Positions 3,309 through 11,862 of a DNA stretch of 13,400 nucleotides are shown here, in pieces (the first letter of the stretch is position 1; each line of letters opens with the position of its first letter). The DNA comes from a virus (Duplodnaviria > Heunggongvirae > Uroviricota > Caudoviricetes): IMG/VR virus record IMGVR_UViG_2565956633_000006; one strand, given 5' to 3'. The translations under genes were made by a program, and so were the position numbers. The notes below the pieces were generated by a model, which had not been told where the DNA came from, did no database searches, and worked only from the letters and a program-made list of their open reading frames with translations.

Positions 3309-3884
3309 CTACGGCAGTGCTGGCCATTCAATATCCTGTGCAGTTGACGTATCAACACGGTTCAGCAATACCCGATACTTTTTCCATGCTTCCAGCAACG
3401 AGATTTCTTCCTCCGTTGCAATTTCCAGATCTGCAGCATCCTGAAGCGGCGCAATATGCTCACTGGCTACCTGCATCAGGCTGTTTTTTGTTTCTTCCGC
3501 CTCCCGGATCCGGAACAGTTTTTCTGCTTCCGTATCCTTCACCCAGGCTGTGCCGTTCCACTTCTGATATTCCCCTCCCGGCGATAACCAGGTAACATTT
3601 TCCGGTAACGGACCGAGTTCAGAAATAAATAACGCGTCGCCAGAAGCCACGTCATAAACCGTTTTACCCCGATGATCTTCAACGAGATGCCACGATGCCT
3701 CATCACTGTTGAAAACAGCCACGAAGCCTGCCGGAATATCTGGCGGTGCAATATCGATACTGTTTGCTGGCAGACCTGTATGAGGCGGAATATATGCGTC
3801 ACCTTCACCAATAAATTCATTAGTTCCGGCCAGCAGATTATAAATTTTTATGGTCCGTGGTTGTTCACTCATTCTGAATGCCAT
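3309..3884 (-). CDS. tfaQ: Tail fibre assembly protein (lambda Tfa-like), 191 aa
   Basis: Tfa-family product; start ATG overlaps the stf stop as TAATG at 3882-3886, indicating translational coupling. Confidence 0.9.
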
Positions 3885-4862: not shown

Positions 4863-5258
4863 TTATTGCATTCTGGCCAGGCCATGTTCTGTCATTTCGG
4901 CTGCCACACCGGCAGAGACACGAAACGCCGTTCCCGGCAGCACAAATGCCACAGGCTCATCCCGCGTGGCGTGAAGTGCATCAGTATGCAGCGTCACCAG
5001 TGCCACGACCGTGACCAGAGCAGCCGTATCAATCACGGTATCCGGCTGCGCTGATACCACCTCATTTTCATGTCCGGTCAGCGCATTTTCCGGGCTGACA
5101 GATGTGTCCTGACCGGCAGCGTCATCCGTGTCATCAAGCTCCTCTTCCAGCTCTGCCACACGGAGCACCAGTTCTTCTTTCGTCCCCGTCAGGCTGACAT
5201 CACGGTTCAGTTGCTCACCCAGCACCTGAAGACGGGCAATCAGTTCATCTTTCGTCAT
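4863..5258 (-). CDS. Lambda FI-like DNA packaging protein, 131 aa
   Basis: Product from the internal ATG at 5256-5258 (MTKDELIARLQVLGEQLNRDVSLTGTKEEL...) matches lambda gpFI; strong SD (GGAGGAG) upstream. The longer ORF-track start at 5297 lacks an SD. Confidence 0.85.
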   Translation of the reverse strand: MTKDELIARLQVLGEQLNRDVSLTGTKEELVLRVAELEEELDDTDDAAGQDTSVSPENALTGHENEVVSAQPDTVIDTAALVTVVALVTLHTDALHATRDEPVAFVLPGTAFRVSAGVAAEMTEHGLARMQ

Positions 5259-5279
5259 GGACTCCTCCACAGAGAGAAA

Positions 5280-5297
5280 ATGGCCCCGAAGGGCCAT
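5280..5297 (-). terminator. GC-rich hairpin between the E remnant and FI (ATGGCCC-TTCG-GGGCCAT on the minus strand, then TTTCTCTCT)
   Basis: Perfect 7-bp stem with a 4-nt loop, followed by a U-rich tract on the coding (minus) strand; could act as attenuator or mRNA stabiliser. Confidence 0.35.
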
Positions 5298-5299
5298 GA

Positions 5300-5866
5300 T
5301 TACGCCAGTTGTACGGACACGAACGCATCAGGATCAGCCAGCAGCATCAGCGGTGCTGACTGAATCATGGTGAACTCACGCGCCGGATCGCCGGTGGTCA
5401 CCCAGTTTTTCGGGTAGCGGGCAGAGGCGTTAATACCTTCGCGCTGTGCGTCCGCATCCTGAATGCAGCCATAGGTGCGCAGACCGCGTGCCTGAGTGTT
5501 CCCCAGCACCATCGTGTTGTCCGGCAGGAAGTTCTTTTTGACGTCGTTTTCCACGTACTGTCCGGAATACACGACGATCGCCGTATCGCCATACATCCCC
5601 TTATAGGACACCGCTTCGCCCAGGTCTTTTACCGCTGTCTCCAGCTCGGAATTAGAGCCGCGACGGGTATCCAGCTTCTCCTTGACGGCTTTGAAGGAAC
5701 GGAACAGCGCCCAGCCTTTCGGATCAAACACGATGATATTCACCACGCCGCTGGCGTTCAGCGCGTAGGCTTCGATATCGTCGGTCGGGTCATACGTGGA
5801 CTTGTCACGCTTGCTCCACTCCGTGCCGCCGGACTGCGTGATGTTGTTCGCCGCACTGCGGCCCAT
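5300..5866 (-). pseudogene. Major capsid protein (lambda gpE-like), C-terminal remnant of about 188 codons
   Basis: Product ends ...NTMVLGNTQARGLRTYGCIQDADAQREGINASARYPKNWVTTGDPAREFTMIQSAPLMLLADPDAFVSVQLA, matching the C-terminus of lambda E; the 5' half is absent and replaced by the Nu1-like gene. Confidence 0.85.
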
Positions 5867-6372
5867 ATCAGTTCATCCAGCGCGGCTGCTTTGTTCATGG
5901 CTTTGATGATATCCCGTTTCAGGAAATCAACATGTCGGTTTTCCAGTTCCGGAAAACGCCGCTGCACCGACAGGGGGATCCCGTCGAGAATACTGGCAAT
6001 TTCACCTGCGATCCGCGACAGCACGAAAGTACAGAATGCGGTTTCCACCACTTCAGCGGAGTCTCTGGCATTTTTCAGCTCCTGTGCGTCGGCCTGCGCA
6101 CGCGTAAGTCGATGGCGTTCGTACTCAATAGTCCCTGGCTGGAGATCTGTCTCGCTGGCCTGCCGCAGTTCTTCAACTTCCCGGCGCAGCTTTTCGTTCT
6201 CAATTTCAGCATCCCTTTCGGCATACCATCTTATAACGGCGGCAGAGTCATAAAGCACCTCATTACCCTTGCCACCGCCTCGCAGAACGGGCATTCCCTG
6301 TTCCTGCCAGTTCTGAATGGTACGGATACTCGCACCGAAAATGTCAGCCAGCTGCTTTTTGTTGACTTCCAT
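5758..6372 (-). CDS. nohA: Terminase small subunit Nu1 homolog with altered C-terminus (fusion to out-of-frame capsid-gene sequence)
   Basis: First ~168 aa (MEVNKKQLADIFGASIRTIQNWQEQGMPVLRGGGKGNEVLYDSAAV...) match lambda Nu1 nearly residue for residue; the tail (..WAAVRRTTSRSPAARSGASVTSPRMTRPTISKPTR) is read from E-derived DNA in another frame. Confidence 0.85.
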   Translation of the reverse strand: MEVNKKQLADIFGASIRTIQNWQEQGMPVLRGGGKGNEVLYDSAAVIRWYAERDAEIENEKLRREVEELRQASETDLQPGTIEYERHRLTRAQADAQELKNARDSAEVVETAFCTFVLSRIAGEIASILDGIPLSVQRRFPELENRHVDFLKRDIIKAMNKAAALDELIWAAVRRTTSRSPAARSGASVTSPRMTRPTISKPTR

Positions 6373-6620
6373 TGTTCATTCCACGGCCAAAAACAGAGAA
6401 AGGAAACGACAGAGGCCCAAAAGCTCGTTTTCAGCACCTGTCGTTTCCTTTCTTTTCAGGGGGTATTTTAAATAAAAACATTAAGTTACGACGAAGAAGA
6501 ACGGAAATGCCTTAAACCGGAAAATTTTCATAAATAGCGAAAACCCGCGAGGTCGCCGCCCCGTAACCTGTCGGATCGCCGGAAAGGACCCGCAAAATGA
6601 TAATAATTATCATCTGCATG
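6373..6620 (-). other. Lambda-type cos packaging site (cosN 12-nt cohesive end at 6550..6561, with cosB toward nohA and cosQ on the other side)
   Basis: Reverse complement of 6481-6563 reads GGGGCGGCGACCTCGCGGGTTTTCGCTATTTATGAAAATTTTCCGGTTTAAGGCATTTCCGTTCTTCTTCGTCGTAACTTAA, nearly identical to the lambda left end as I recall it, including cohesive end GGGCGGCGACCT. Confidence 0.8.
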
Positions 6621-6760
6621 TCACAACGTGCATCTACGCCATCAAACCACGTCAAATAATCAATTATGACGCAGATATCGTATTAATTGATCTGCATCAA
6701 CTTAACGTAAAAACAACTTCAGACAATACAAATCAGCGACACTGAATACGGGACAACCTC

Positions 6761-6994
6761 ATGTCAACGAAGAACAGAACCCGCAGAACAACAACCCGCA
6801 ACATCCGCTTTCCTAACCAAATGATTGAACAAATTAACATCGCTCTTGAGCAAAAAGGGTCCGGGAATTTCTCAGCCTGGGTCATTGAAGCCTGCCGCCG
6901 GAGACTGTGCTCAGAAAAAAGAGTTTCTTCTGAAGCAAACAAAGAAAAGAGTGACATTACTGAATTGCTCAGAAAACAGGTCAGACCAGATTGA
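6761..6994 (+). CDS. ynfO: Small ribbon-helix-helix-like protein, 77 aa (lambda right-end ORF homolog)
   Basis: Basic N-terminus (MSTKNRTRRTTTRN) followed by IRFPNQMIEQINIALEQKGSGNFSAWVIEACRRRL, which has the beta-strand/helix/helix pattern of RHH (Arc/CopG) DNA-binding domains; sits beside cos as in lambda. Confidence 0.75.
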   Translation: MSTKNRTRRTTTRNIRFPNQMIEQINIALEQKGSGNFSAWVIEACRRRLCSEKRVSSEANKEKSDITELLRKQVRPD

Positions 6995-7051
6995 AGCAAT
7001 TTAGATAATCGTGCAGACTACGCCCCCTCATATCACATGGAAGGTTTATCT

Positions 7052-7462
7052 ATGGATCAGGTAGTCATTTTTAAACAAATATTTGATAAAGTTCGAAACG
7101 ATTTAAACTATCAATGGTTTTATTCTGAGCTAAAACGTCACAATGTCTCACATTACATTTACTATTTAGCCACAGAGAATGTTCATATTGTATTAAAAAA
7201 TGATAATACAGTGTTATTAAAGGGCCTAAAAAACATTGTGTCTGTCAAATTTTCAAAGGATAGGCATCTTATAGAAACGACCTCTAATAAGCTGAAATCC
7301 AGAGAGATCACATTTCAGGAATACAGAAGAAACCTTGCTAAAGCAGGAGTTTTTCGGTGGGTTACAAATATCCACGAACAAAAAAGATATTACTATACCT
7401 TTGATAATTCATTACTATTTACTGAAAGCATCCAGAAAACTACACAGATCTTACCACGCTAA
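7052..7462 (+). CDS. ydfO: DUF1398-family protein (YbcV/YdfO family), 136 aa
   Basis: ORF 7037..7462; second ATG at 7052 ([14 protein letters not shown]...) has GGAAGG 7 nt upstream and is the likely start. Confidence 0.8.
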
Positions 7463-7470
7463 ACCATAAC

Positions 7471-7499
7471 GTCCGGCTTCTCTCACTCCTGAGCCGGAC
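7471..7499 (+). terminator. Hairpin downstream of ydfO (GTCCGGCT ... AGCCGGAC)
   Basis: 8-bp GC-rich inverted repeat with a 13-nt loop, 9 nt after the ydfO stop; no clean U-tract, so function uncertain. Confidence 0.3.
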
Positions 7500-7613
7500 T
7501 GCATTGGTTTAATAAAAACCATCAACAATTGTGATTTAGATATTCGGAACCATTCAAATATAACAAAACCCCGTAAAAACGAGGTTTATGGATAAATTTT
7601 ATTATTGAATACA

Positions 7614-7787
7614 TCAGATTAAATTAATCTTGACATCATAGCTTTCAAGACCCGTCATTTTTTCCCGTGCGGTAAACTGAATACTGGTAACTTCTTTCCC
7701 GGTCTTTTTCTTAAGTTCAATAATTTTTTTTGTTATATATTCAGAAATATCTGCTTCTGCTTTTGTTTTTAAGTTTTCAATATTCAT
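7614..7787 (-). CDS. gnsB: GnsB-like small protein, 57 aa (MNIENLKTKAEADISEYITKKIIELKKKTGKEVTSIQFTAREKMTGLESYDVKINLI)
   Basis: Absent from the ORF track (under 60 aa); translated by hand from the minus strand. ATG at 7785-7787 with GAGGAA upstream; product resembles GnsA/GnsB. Confidence 0.8.
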   Translation of the reverse strand: MNIENLKTKAEADISEYITKKIIELKKKTGKEVTSIQFTAREKMTGLESYDVKINLI

Positions 7788-7958
7788 CATTTCCTCTTTT
7801 AGTCTGTTATGACTTTCCAGTTACACAGTAAGTCGATTATATGGTGCAAACGTGTAAAAGATAAGATGAAACATCGCAATAATCAACATACGATAGTCTA
7901 AATTTTACACAAACAGACAAAGAAAATTTTCCTGAATTATCAATACAATAGCATCAAA

Positions 7959-8114
7959 TCAACTCAAGAGCCTTATTGCTGCTTCCAGAATTTCTTCTGA
8001 AGTAACATGTCGATCCGCGGCTACATAAATGACTTTATGATCTCCGGTCAGAGATGGAAACCCTGCGGCCATTACAGTAAGGTGTGTTTTTTCGCCATTT
8101 GGATATTCACGCAT
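7959..8114 (-). CDS. ynfN: Small prophage protein YnfN-like (51 aa from ATG 8112-8114); start uncertain
   Basis: ORF track gives 7959..8231 (90 aa, TTG start). In-frame ATGs lie at 8189 and 8114; the 8114 start has GGAG about 11 nt upstream. A strong minus-strand terminator at 8233-8253 sits immediately upstream of the longest form. Confidence 0.5.
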   Translation of the reverse strand: MREYPNGEKTHLTVMAAGFPSLTGDHKVIYVAADRHVTSEEILEAAIRLLS

Positions 8115-8232
8115 GATGGTGTTAACTCCAGTCATCGCTGGCACTACCACTGCAGGTTCAGAGTTAAAAAAAACTATGATTTTTTTCATGATGTTACCGT
8201 AGTATGTGAGTATCCATCGAATAGATACCAAG

Positions 8233-8253: not shown

Positions 8254-8460
8254 CTTCATTTTCACTTTTTTAAATCCAACGACAGACGGCTGGCATTTAA
8301 GTATTGTGAAATATTATCAAATGTAATCATCATTGATTTACAAAAGATACATTTTGCCCCGAAAGGATTCATGTCAGAAACATCAAAAGATGATGTTCTA
8401 TACTGGGAACCATGACAACACGGGCATCTAAAGTGAATATGGTTTGTAATATTGTCTACC

Positions 8461-8673
8461 TCAAAGCGCCACTACATGAACAGCGGCAGGACCTTTAGGT
8501 CCGTTCTCAATACCAAATTCAACTTCCTGATTCTCAGTTAATGTTTTGAAATCGTTGCTCTGAATTGCTGAGAAATGGACAAACACATCTTTGCTGCCAT
8601 CTTTCGGCGTGATGAAACCAAAACCTTTTTCAGGGTTAAACCATTTCACTAAACCAGTCATTTTGTTAGACAT
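8461..8673 (-). CDS. cspI: Cold-shock protein CspI (CspA family), 70 aa
   Basis: [38 protein letters not shown]... with RNP1 (KGFGFI) and RNP2 (VFVHF) motifs; long leader region upstream. Confidence 0.95.
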
Positions 8674-9037
8674 AATTATTACCTTTTGAAGAAATTAGCC
8701 CTTGGGCAGAATGGTCCGAAAAAAAAATATCAGAGAGAAAAACCAACAAGGAAATCTCAAGAGGTACAAATAATAAAATTATAACAATGACTGCTTCAGA
8801 TAAATTTGTAACAAACCAGAACACCATTAACGCATGATTAACCACCCATAGCAAGGATTACTTTTGTAAAGAAAAACACAGCAATGAAAGAATAGCTTTA
8901 TTTATTAATAATAACGTGTCATTCTGATTAAGACCTTTTATCTTACCCTTAAGATTTCAGGAATTTTGGCTCATGGAAGAGTCCTTTTTATTTAAATTTT
9001 ACATTCCGCGATGTAAATGTTCCGATTTAATATTACC

Positions 9038-10061
<1,024 letters not shown>

Positions 10062-11065: not shown

Positions 11066-11346
11066 GAGATTGTGGTGCTTTTTGTGGGAGTCATCCACTT
11101 ACGCACTTTGTTTTGCCATGCCAGCAGTTAGCTTCTGCTGTAAAACTATTCATGCAGCAAACCTGCACTTCACCACAATGGTTAGCATACTTTTCCTGAT
11201 TAAGATTTTGCCAAATATGCTAGCCATTGTTTCATGTATTGGACCTCCTTACTTTTTATTAAAGAGATCCAATATTCACTACTCTGTCCGTATCTCTACT
11301 CAGGCATCAGCCTTCTTCGTTATCGTATACAGACGAGCGATGAATT

Positions 11347-11562
11347 TTAATCAGTAATGATGACATTTGCTGCTGCAGGACCTTTAGCACCACTCTCTAT
11401 AGAGAAGGTAACCTTTTGACCTTCAAATAAGGTTCGATAATTATCATTCTGAATCGCAGAAAAATGCACAAACACATCTTTACTACCATCAACAGGAGAA
11501 ATAAAGCCGAAACCTTTATCAGCGTTAAACCATTTTACTAAACCAGTCATTTTATTTGACAT
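11347..11562 (-). CDS. cspB: Cold-shock protein CspB (CspA family), 71 aa
   Basis: [38 protein letters not shown]...; AAGGA SD 7 nt upstream of the ATG at 11560-11562. Confidence 0.95.
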
Positions 11563-11862
11563 TCTACATTCCTTAACTTGAGCCTTTCGGCATAAATGGT
11601 TTGCATAACAGAAACGACTTCGTACTTAATTGGAGAGACTCAAAGAAGGAATAAGTGAATAACACCTGAAATGAGAACTGCTTTAGTAAACTACTTCGTA
11701 TATCGTCTGTTCTTCAAACCGACGCAATCATTAACGCATAGTTGAACATATGAAGCAATGTTTATTTTAGACATCCAGCCATCTTCAACCCCATCAAAAA
11801 ACTATAGCTTTCTTCAGGAACGTGTGTATAGTGCGCCAAGTTATCAGTATTAAGGAATTTTT
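11563..11862. promoter_or_regulatory. Divergent cspB/cspF control region (promoters and long 5' leaders)
   Basis: 300-bp AT-rich spacer between divergently oriented csp genes; contains a repeated ACTTCGTA motif (11615-11626 and 11691-11705) in the expected cspB leader. CspA-family genes are known to carry long regulatory 5' UTRs. Confidence 0.5.

Follow-up and report, generated by a model that had tools for sequence, protein, structure and literature searches.

How two small genes came to lie side by side at the cos end of a lambda-type prophage, and whether they work as a unit, is the question raised by the Caudoviricetes record IMGVR_UViG_2565956633_000006, of which a stretch of 13,400 nucleotides (the window) was analysed here. 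A reading of the window from sequence alone had singled out a 77-residue open reading frame (ORF) followed, after 57 nt, by a 136-residue one, and had proposed that a ribbon-helix-helix (RHH) protein and a DUF1398 protein form a two-gene cassette reminiscent of toxin-antitoxin or autoregulated accessory modules. Both ORFs and the spacer (6995-7051) are where that reading had placed them. They are not new but correspond to ynfO and ydfO, genes annotated earlier in the lambda-type prophage Qin: a 1.2-kb query over both ORFs is 100% identical in many E. coli chromosomes, in which RefSeq names them, within the Qin prophage, as ynfO ('YlcI/YnfO family protein') and ydfO ('DUF1398 domain-containing protein'). 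The best explanation, which we consider somewhat better than an even bet, is that ynfO and ydfO are separable accessory genes, namely an Arc-like stand-alone regulator and a stress-responsive DUF1398 cargo gene, and that their adjacency reflects a mosaic junction. The features central to this argument are as follows.

6761-6994, plus strand: ynfO coding sequence, 77 residues, YlcI/YnfO family (DUF3950)
6794-6910, plus strand: RHH-like core of YnfO, residues 12-50, with a TRNIRFP strand, a helix at 19-32, a GSGN loop and a helix from residue 37
6911-6994, plus strand: variable C-terminal tail of YnfO, residues 51-77, placed by the alignment of Qin and lambda; homologue tails differ
7039-7044, plus strand: Shine-Dalgarno sequence GGAAGG of ydfO, 7 nt before the ATG at 7052 and conserved in lambda
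7052-7462, plus strand: ydfO coding sequence, 136 residues, DUF1398, AT-rich (30-33% GC)

Two genes under purifying selection

The family membership of both proteins is clear. YnfO, which begins with the basic N-terminus MSTKNRTRRTTTRN, matches Pfam DUF3950 (PF13132) at 75.6 bits (cutoff 25, E 2.7e-21), NCBIfam NF041551 at 36.6 bits (cutoff 30) and PHROG 949 at E 6e-34, and is a member of the YlcI/YnfO family (DUF3950, NF041551). YdfO matches a single Pfam family, DUF1398 (PF07166), at 157.7 bits (cutoff 22) and is identical at 135 of 136 residues to the nuclear magnetic resonance (NMR) entry PDB 2HH8 ('ydfO'); it is a DUF1398 member of the YdfO/YbcV kind, and the earlier description of a DUF1398 gene with a strong Shine-Dalgarno sequence of its own is borne out. 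An alternative in-frame ATG at 7037 would extend YdfO to 141 residues. The ratio of nonsynonymous to synonymous substitution rates (dN/dS, Nei-Gojobori) is 0.05-0.14 over codons 1-52 of ynfO when two Stx-type prophage homologues are compared; for ydfO, with lambda p78 as the reference, it is 0.18. Neither ORF is due to chance: both are genuine genes, and purifying selection acts on each of them.

Independent distribution of ynfO and ydfO

Relatives of YnfO occur in 155 and those of YdfO in 43 of 50,697 phage records searched with tblastn, and IMG/VR holds at least 600 DUF3950 matches against 373 for DUF1398. Among 5,426 complete E. coli genomes, the 5' half of ynfO is present at 9,861 places in 4,184 genomes and ydfO-like DNA at 8,903 places in 5,376, and the O157:H7 strain TR01 carries seven DUF3950 copies and one DUF1398 copy. 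The order of genes varies among relatives. Lambda contains an intact 64-residue YlcI ORF (48109-48303, minus strand; L002 2710-2904), not annotated in NC_001416 and likewise 200 bp from the right cohesive end, after which come p79 (ybcW-like, on the opposite strand), the DUF1398 gene p78 and then bor; ylcI and p78 both run opposite to Nu1, as the sequence-only reading had stated for the right-end ORFs of lambda. DLP12-type loci have the same layout, with a ybcW/p79-like gene between ylcI and the DUF1398 gene. Phage 434 has the DUF3950 gene followed by bor and lacks DUF1398; the Stx-type prophage YYZ-2008 has a lone DUF3950 gene between HNH and Rz, beside a packaging module of HNH, TerS and TerL; and at two further loci, L075 and L199, which have no DUF3950 gene, a DUF1398 gene with 78-96% identity to YdfO follows a p79-like gene and another kind of small terminase. 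Newer records of lambda and 434 do annotate the YlcI ORF. Taken across these phage records and loci, the two genes are not co-inherited as a unit, and since their separate occurrence in related phages is what the sequence-only reading had itself named as decisive against a cassette, the cassette fails.

Two sets of results are to be read within their scope. Co-occurrence of 75/80 and 76/77 in IMG/VR comes from the best-scoring 80 loci and is uninformative, because these sets hold only near-identical Qin-type loci; and a scan of genome contigs for DUF1398, with strict patterns that missed distant relatives, returned mostly lambda control DNA in unrelated taxa. The lambda right end (YlcI, p79, p78, bor) sits on contigs of ~3.5 kb or 48.5 kb (L179-L210, plasmid matches H124-H128) assigned to Staphylococcus, Xanthomonas, Pedobacter, Kitasatospora, Bradyrhizobium and others, with proteins that are 100% identical to those of lambda or match the Qin queries exactly as lambda does. 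Such contigs are most likely lambda control DNA contaminating assemblies, and the same contamination probably explains many frameshifted YlcI and YbcV variants in protein collections.

A family search over 1.84 billion cluster representatives gave 120 relatives of YnfO, many of which derive from lambda control DNA and are frameshifted. Some 20 are true but diverged homologues, at 30-57% identity, and have in common the motif K-x-I-R-F-P-h-x-L-I-E-x-I ... N-F-S-A-W-V-x-[ED]-A-C. One diverged DUF3950 gene (L163 6001-6180), whose core is 57% identical, lies between the gene for cytochrome bd oxidase subunit II and a small DUF2474 gene, and because of this non-phage context DUF3950 is not strictly phage-bound.

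A mosaic junction inside ynfO

DNA alignment of Qin with lambda shows where the two layouts part. The prophages are 94-97% identical from cosQ to about codon 50 of ynfO, the DNA of the RHH-like core being 96.7% identical; lambda has at that point ~620 bp (the p79 region) which Qin lacks, and homology resumes at GGTCAGACCAGATTGAA, 60 nt before the DUF1398 start, to continue at 85% through the gene. The ynfO frame runs across this junction to a stop codon inside the conserved region upstream of DUF1398, and therefore the 27-residue tail of YnfO is not homologous to the 14-residue tail of YlcI in lambda and DLP12. GC content steps down from ~44% in ynfO to ~31% in ydfO; more broadly, 30-33% in ydfO compares with 43-46% in ynfO and cos and 55-60% in Nu1. 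In its variable presence at a module boundary and a composition unlike that of its flanks, ydfO resembles a phage accessory gene ('moron'). The alignment and composition suggest that the two genes have different histories, in which the 5' half of ynfO would have been inherited with the highly conserved cos-Nu1 block while the DUF1398 gene would be exchangeable cargo. The close spacing in Qin would then reflect the absence of the ~620-bp segment that carries ybcW/p79 in lambda and DLP12, the junction also giving YnfO a different tail.

The predicted fold of YnfO

It is likely, judging from structural models, that YnfO has the RHH fold. The AlphaFold2 (AF2) model, built from an alignment of relatives, is extended at residues 14-18, helical at 19-32 and, after a loop of four residues, helical again from residue 37, with a predicted local distance difference test (pLDDT) score of 76-87 over residues 11-50; it has the strand-helix-helix topology of ~45 residues by which an RHH domain is recognised. 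Most of the top 50 Foldseek matches in the PDB are RHH proteins, including ParD, KacA/TacA, a CopG-family protein, RHH-type MazE, Arc, NikR, CopA, YiiF and MatP, and their cores align at 1.3-3 Å; all have E > 1, and such non-significant values are usual with domains of 45 residues. In hhalign comparisons with provisional sequences of Arc, Mnt and CopG (pairwise E 0.002-0.36), the NIRFP of YnfO falls in register with NLRWP of Arc, NFRMP of Mnt and ITLS of CopG; for the YnfO profile against Arc the pairwise E is 0.002-0.014 and the probability 3-14%. N14 and R16 of YnfO fall on the positions of N11 and R13 of Arc, which are its base-contacting residues.

Some results speak against this assignment. 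The mean pLDDT of the monomer model is 72, and DSSP assigns no strand in it, as is expected because the RHH strand pairs only in the dimer. In searches of PDB sequences, the best RHH match of the full-length DUF3950 profile was the CopG-family protein 9kkd at a non-significant E of 0.82, and the trimmed profile did not find RHH proteins; a Pfam RHH_6 match in one DUF3950 member reached E 0.092. The RHH assignment is thus supported by predicted structure, not by significant sequence statistics. If the fold is as modelled, YnfO would dimerise and insert an N-terminal beta-ribbon, with N14 and R16, into DNA, and could serve as a transcriptional regulator that stands alone and probably represses its own promoter.

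Regulation and possible roles of ydfO

Several elements flank ydfO.

6975-6991: AACAGGTCAGACCAGAT, reported as a PdhR box from systematic evolution of ligands by exponential enrichment (SELEX) and containing a GGTC-A-GACC palindrome, conserved upstream of the lambda DUF1398 gene too
7004-7009: possible -10 element GATAAT after the PdhR box, tentatively assigned to a promoter
7471-7499, plus strand: 9-bp GC-rich hairpin just 3' of the ydfO stop, without a U-tract (RNA fold of 7455-7610, z-score -3.1)
7566-7587: terminator-like hairpin between the convergent ydfO and gnsB, called on the minus strand by the scan and folding on the plus strand as well

The PdhR SELEX box maps to AAcaGGTcagACCAgaT, at 6975-6991 of the window, and a related box precedes ybcV, the mRNA of which is 10-fold lower in a pdhR mutant (PMC7660256). 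After ionic-liquid shock, ydfO mRNA in K-12 rises 12-fold by microarray and 117-fold by quantitative PCR (PMC4077768). Expression of ybcV is also raised in a sabinene-tolerant strain. These published data show that ydfO is regulated independently of YnfO. With its own ribosome-binding site and a conserved upstream element, a PdhR-type box and then GATAAT, ydfO may be transcribed from a separate promoter and probably responds to host signals.

A literature search yielded no functional study of ynfO, ylcI, ydfO, ybcV or ycgX, no phenotype being known, and no report of YdfO toxicity, and a survey of 2025 reached no consistent functional inference for the YdfO paralogue ycgX. The labels 'head protein' (PHROG 413) and 'envelope protein' given to DUF1398 have no experimental basis in the literature found. 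The lambda gene lambdap78 (L002 1643-2176) is annotated under the name 'head protein' with 177 residues, starting at a GTG. In lambda the conserved ORF for DUF1398 has 136 residues from the ATG at 47452 (47045-47452, minus strand), and homology with Qin starts only about 70 nt upstream of this ATG; the annotated start is probably over-extended and the product name unsupported. TraDIS, a sequencing screen of transposon insertion sites, in K-12 recovered few Tn5 insertions in ydfO, which was tabulated with the antitoxins higA, hipB and relB (PMC5821084). An antitoxin-like role was not adopted on this account, since a bias from AT-rich or H-NS-bound DNA explains the low density equally well and ydfO is not among the genes that the Keio collection lists as essential; such a bias or a real fitness effect are both possible.

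The prophage setting

In the window, a deleted head region is joined at cos to the right end of an E. coli lambda-type prophage of the Qin type. The following features define the setting.

4863-5297: FI, next after the E fragment
5300-5866: ORF for the C-terminal part of major capsid protein E, overlapping the Nu1/nohA ORF
5758-6372, minus strand: Nu1/nohA (ORF list and Pfam scan)
6550-6561, minus strand: cosN 12-nt cohesive end GGGCGGCGACCT, a single exact match (0 expected by chance) that marks the joined cos
~6585-6591: cosQ-like GGGTCCT (reverse complement)
6594-6760, plus strand: region upstream of ynfO, ~94% identical to lambda, in which its promoter must lie
7614-7790, minus strand: gnsB, convergent to ydfO

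The cosN region aligns with the lambda right end and lies 200 bp from the ynfO start, with Nu1/nohA on the minus strand; the pair is thus next to cos and opposite to the packaging genes, as had been proposed, and would fill a slot of variable content that separates the lysis cassette from cos, with both genes antisense to the late operon. The Nu1/nohA ORF of 204 residues covers positions 1-164 of the Nu1 profile, and the E fragment covers positions 147-328 of its own. The genes for terminase A, portal, protease and decoration protein are missing here compared with strain WAT (L001), and the prophage copy is therefore defective. Further right lie gnsB, cspI, the lysis genes, cspB/cspF and an antiterminator. 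Pfam and RefSeq label gnsB 'GnsA/GnsB addiction module toxin', and ynfN lies upstream of it (window 7614-8231); should this neighbourhood contain a toxin-antitoxin-like pair, gnsB and ynfN would be better candidates than ynfO and ydfO. Three Rfam matches above the gathering score, all on the minus strand (3343-3541, 8434-8820 and 11331-11723), comprise IS009 (221 bits), located within the gene for tail-fibre assembly, and two cspA thermoregulator 5' untranslated regions, which precede cspI and cspB.

DUF3950 relatives in satellites

What YnfO probably does is best indicated by distant DUF3950 relatives in satellite-type islands (L162, L165-L167) with an integrase, a small gene taken as AlpA-like and a primase, together with TerS in L165 and L166. 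Their DUF3950 genes run against all other genes, divergent from the replication operon next to int; a Klebsiella plasmid carries a DUF3950 gene divergent from an icd-like gene. Islands L165-L167 carry two DUF3950 copies in tandem, the second fused to a Terminase_2-type helix-turn-helix (HTH) segment (E 1.6e-11). At the first copy the perfect 12-bp palindrome TGGTACGTACCA occurs twice, at a distance of 33 bp and on either side of a TATAAT -10 element, and a terminator follows the gene; the second copy is preceded by four GTTTAACAC-like repeats. This layout looks like the anatomy of an autoregulated repressor. The island at L165 6400-10800 (E. coli CP027459), with integrase, AlpA-like gene, D5-type primase, TerS and a capsid-like gene, adjoins the DUF3950 gene, HNH and a 61-residue TerS fragment of an Stx-type prophage, and may be integrated in the prophage terS.

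A speculative extension, which we hold to be improbable, is that DUF3950 is an Arc-like repressor family common to lambdoid helpers and satellites that serves as a helper-to-satellite signal or in satellite interference at the helper cos/terminase. Prophages would hold a single copy at the lysis/packaging junction, the lambda ORF unannotated in RefSeq included, and satellites resembling capsid-forming phage-inducible chromosomal islands (PICI) or P4 would hold two tandem copies in the position of a master regulator, one with the TerS-type HTH. Mixed dimers could arise between the phage copy and the satellite regulators, which is conceivable given that RHH proteins are obligately dimeric, or the phage copy could compete for the operators of those regulators.

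Weighing the explanations

Several observations count against separable genes with a self-repressing regulator. In phages with a lambda-type cos, a DUF1398 gene is nearly always preceded by a DUF3950 gene. The tight Qin-type layout is found also in the viable phages PhiR42_1, PhiR70_1, PhiR49_1 and Kati, and with DUF1398 alleles 100%, 96% and 75% identical (YnfO 96-100%); because diverged alleles and viable phages have it, the architecture is stable and is not the product of a single event of decay. A terminator scan found none in the 57-nt spacer, which makes co-transcription, and control of ydfO by YnfO, possible. At ynfO itself, a promoter scan found no consensus sigma-70 promoter on the plus strand (nor is there one before ydfO), and upstream inverted repeats were rejected as an operator, the best of them being matched in 28 of 500 dinucleotide shuffles and thus not above chance; since the locus offers neither a promoter nor above-chance repeats, autorepression at Qin is proposed from the family. 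The main rival, less likely but still to be reckoned with, is one in which YnfO/YlcI controls the accessory gene downstream (ydfO in Qin, p78 and bor in lambda, bor in 434) in an operon without toxin-antitoxin behaviour. In every case, the first gene to run leftward after cos or the packaging genes is that for DUF3950, the spacer holds no terminator, and RHH regulators commonly stand at the head of small operons. However, Stx-type prophages keep DUF3950 without downstream cargo, the next gene being Rz on the opposite strand; a convergent p79/ybcW intervenes in lambda and DLP12; a conserved upstream element and a PdhR box are retained by the DUF1398 gene as its own; and a repeated operator was not detected upstream of ynfO or near ydfO. 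With separable genes, any co-transcription in Qin would be incidental and would not signify toxin-antitoxin coupling.

The type II toxin-antitoxin or addiction module, with YnfO as RHH antitoxin and autorepressor and YdfO as toxin, is largely refuted by distribution and now very unlikely, even though a small RHH-like protein precedes a larger ORF on the same strand by 57 nt and many of its structural neighbours (ParD, KacA/TacA, MazE) are RHH antitoxins. Relatives do not inherit the two as an adjacent pair; the tails of YnfO and YlcI, which would be the toxin-binding part of an RHH antitoxin, are not homologous although both genes lie upstream of DUF1398; and in PhiR49_1 and Kati a YnfO 96-97% identical is paired with a DUF1398 protein only 75% identical. 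Neither YnfO nor YdfO matches a toxin family, YdfO matching DUF1398 alone, and PADLOC returned zero matches for YnfO, YdfO, GnsB and YnfN. YdfO was over-produced by itself for the NMR structure 2HH8, and the scarcity of insertions (PMC5821084) falls in the supposed toxin gene, which should tolerate them, and not in that of the antitoxin, which should not. Slightly less improbable, but doubtful, is a role in packaging or the late operon, in which YlcI/YnfO would bind near cos or the terminase genes and modulate cos cleavage, act on late read-through as roadblock or antisense, or interfere with packaging between helper and satellite. Its site beside cos/terminase is constant over two unrelated modules, lambda Nu1/A and HNH-TerS-TerL, the N-terminal half of ynfO is inherited together with the cos-Nu1 block, and homologues in satellites carry the fused Terminase_2-type HTH; yet ynfO lies on the strand opposite to the packaging genes, minimal lambda cos fragments function without the ylcI ORF, the fused segment is short (~50 residues) and is read as the DNA-binding part of TerS only, and linkage to cos may be mere hitch-hiking. 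The least probable reading of all is that both genes are relics, decaying in a cryptic prophage and no longer functional. The prophage copy is indeed defective, with Nu1 fused to a capsid fragment and head genes deleted, and a phenotype for either gene is not known, but both are under purifying selection and are conserved without disruption in viable phages, among them lambda, 434 and the PhiR series, and the ydfO and ybcV transcripts are regulated.

Implications

For the two genes themselves the outcome matters little, as both are already catalogued in E. coli K-12 and lambdoid phages, with function unassigned there. Of more use could be its by-products: structural support for an Arc/CopG-type DNA-binding fold in DUF3950, and with it a candidate regulator 200 bp from cos in lambda; the recommendation to leave ynfO-ydfO off lists of toxin-antitoxin candidates; and the occurrence of DUF3950 homologues in the position of a satellite regulator, which offers a lead for work on helpers and satellites.

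Comparison with known systems

The closest counterpart of YnfO is YlcI of DLP12 and the lambda ORF, which is 98% identical over the first 54 residues and lies at the same 200 bp from cosN, in the same orientation opposite Nu1, with upstream DNA ~94% identical to that of ynfO. The two differ in length (64 against 77 residues), in the non-homologous 27-residue tail of YnfO and in the next gene, which is the convergent p79/ybcW for YlcI of lambda and DLP12 and the DUF1398 gene for YnfO. For YdfO, the DUF1398 relatives are YbcV of DLP12, lambdap78 and YcgX; it is 79% identical to lambda p78, which has the same length, Shine-Dalgarno sequence and upstream GGTCAGACC element but, unlike ydfO, is preceded by p79 and followed by bor.

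In size and predicted topology (basic arm, strand, helix, helix), YnfO resembles P22 Arc and Mnt and CopG, and it shares with Arc and Mnt the N-x-R-aromatic-P strand motif (NIRFP, NLRWP and NFRMP) and the nature of a small phage-borne regulator, presumptive in the case of YnfO, in or beside the late region. It differs from Arc, Mnt and CopG in that it has no significant sequence relationship to them and its second helix continues into a long tail, and from Arc and Mnt of P22 in that Qin has no ant-like target and no operator was identified at ynfO. An RHH-like N-terminal domain with an extended C-terminal segment is also found in the RHH antitoxins ParD, RelB, KacA/TacA and RHH-type MazE, the group that gives its top structural matches and from which YnfO is set apart by having no conserved partner gene, no recognisable toxin domain and no tail conserved with a partner. 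The lambda morons bor and lom, finally, provide a parallel for the pair as a whole. While bor has a demonstrated lipoprotein product and a serum resistance phenotype, with nothing comparable known for ynfO or ydfO, these morons occupy the same slot between Rz and cos, antisense to the late operon, are variable among relatives and responsive to host factors, and have in common with ydfO an atypical, AT-rich composition.

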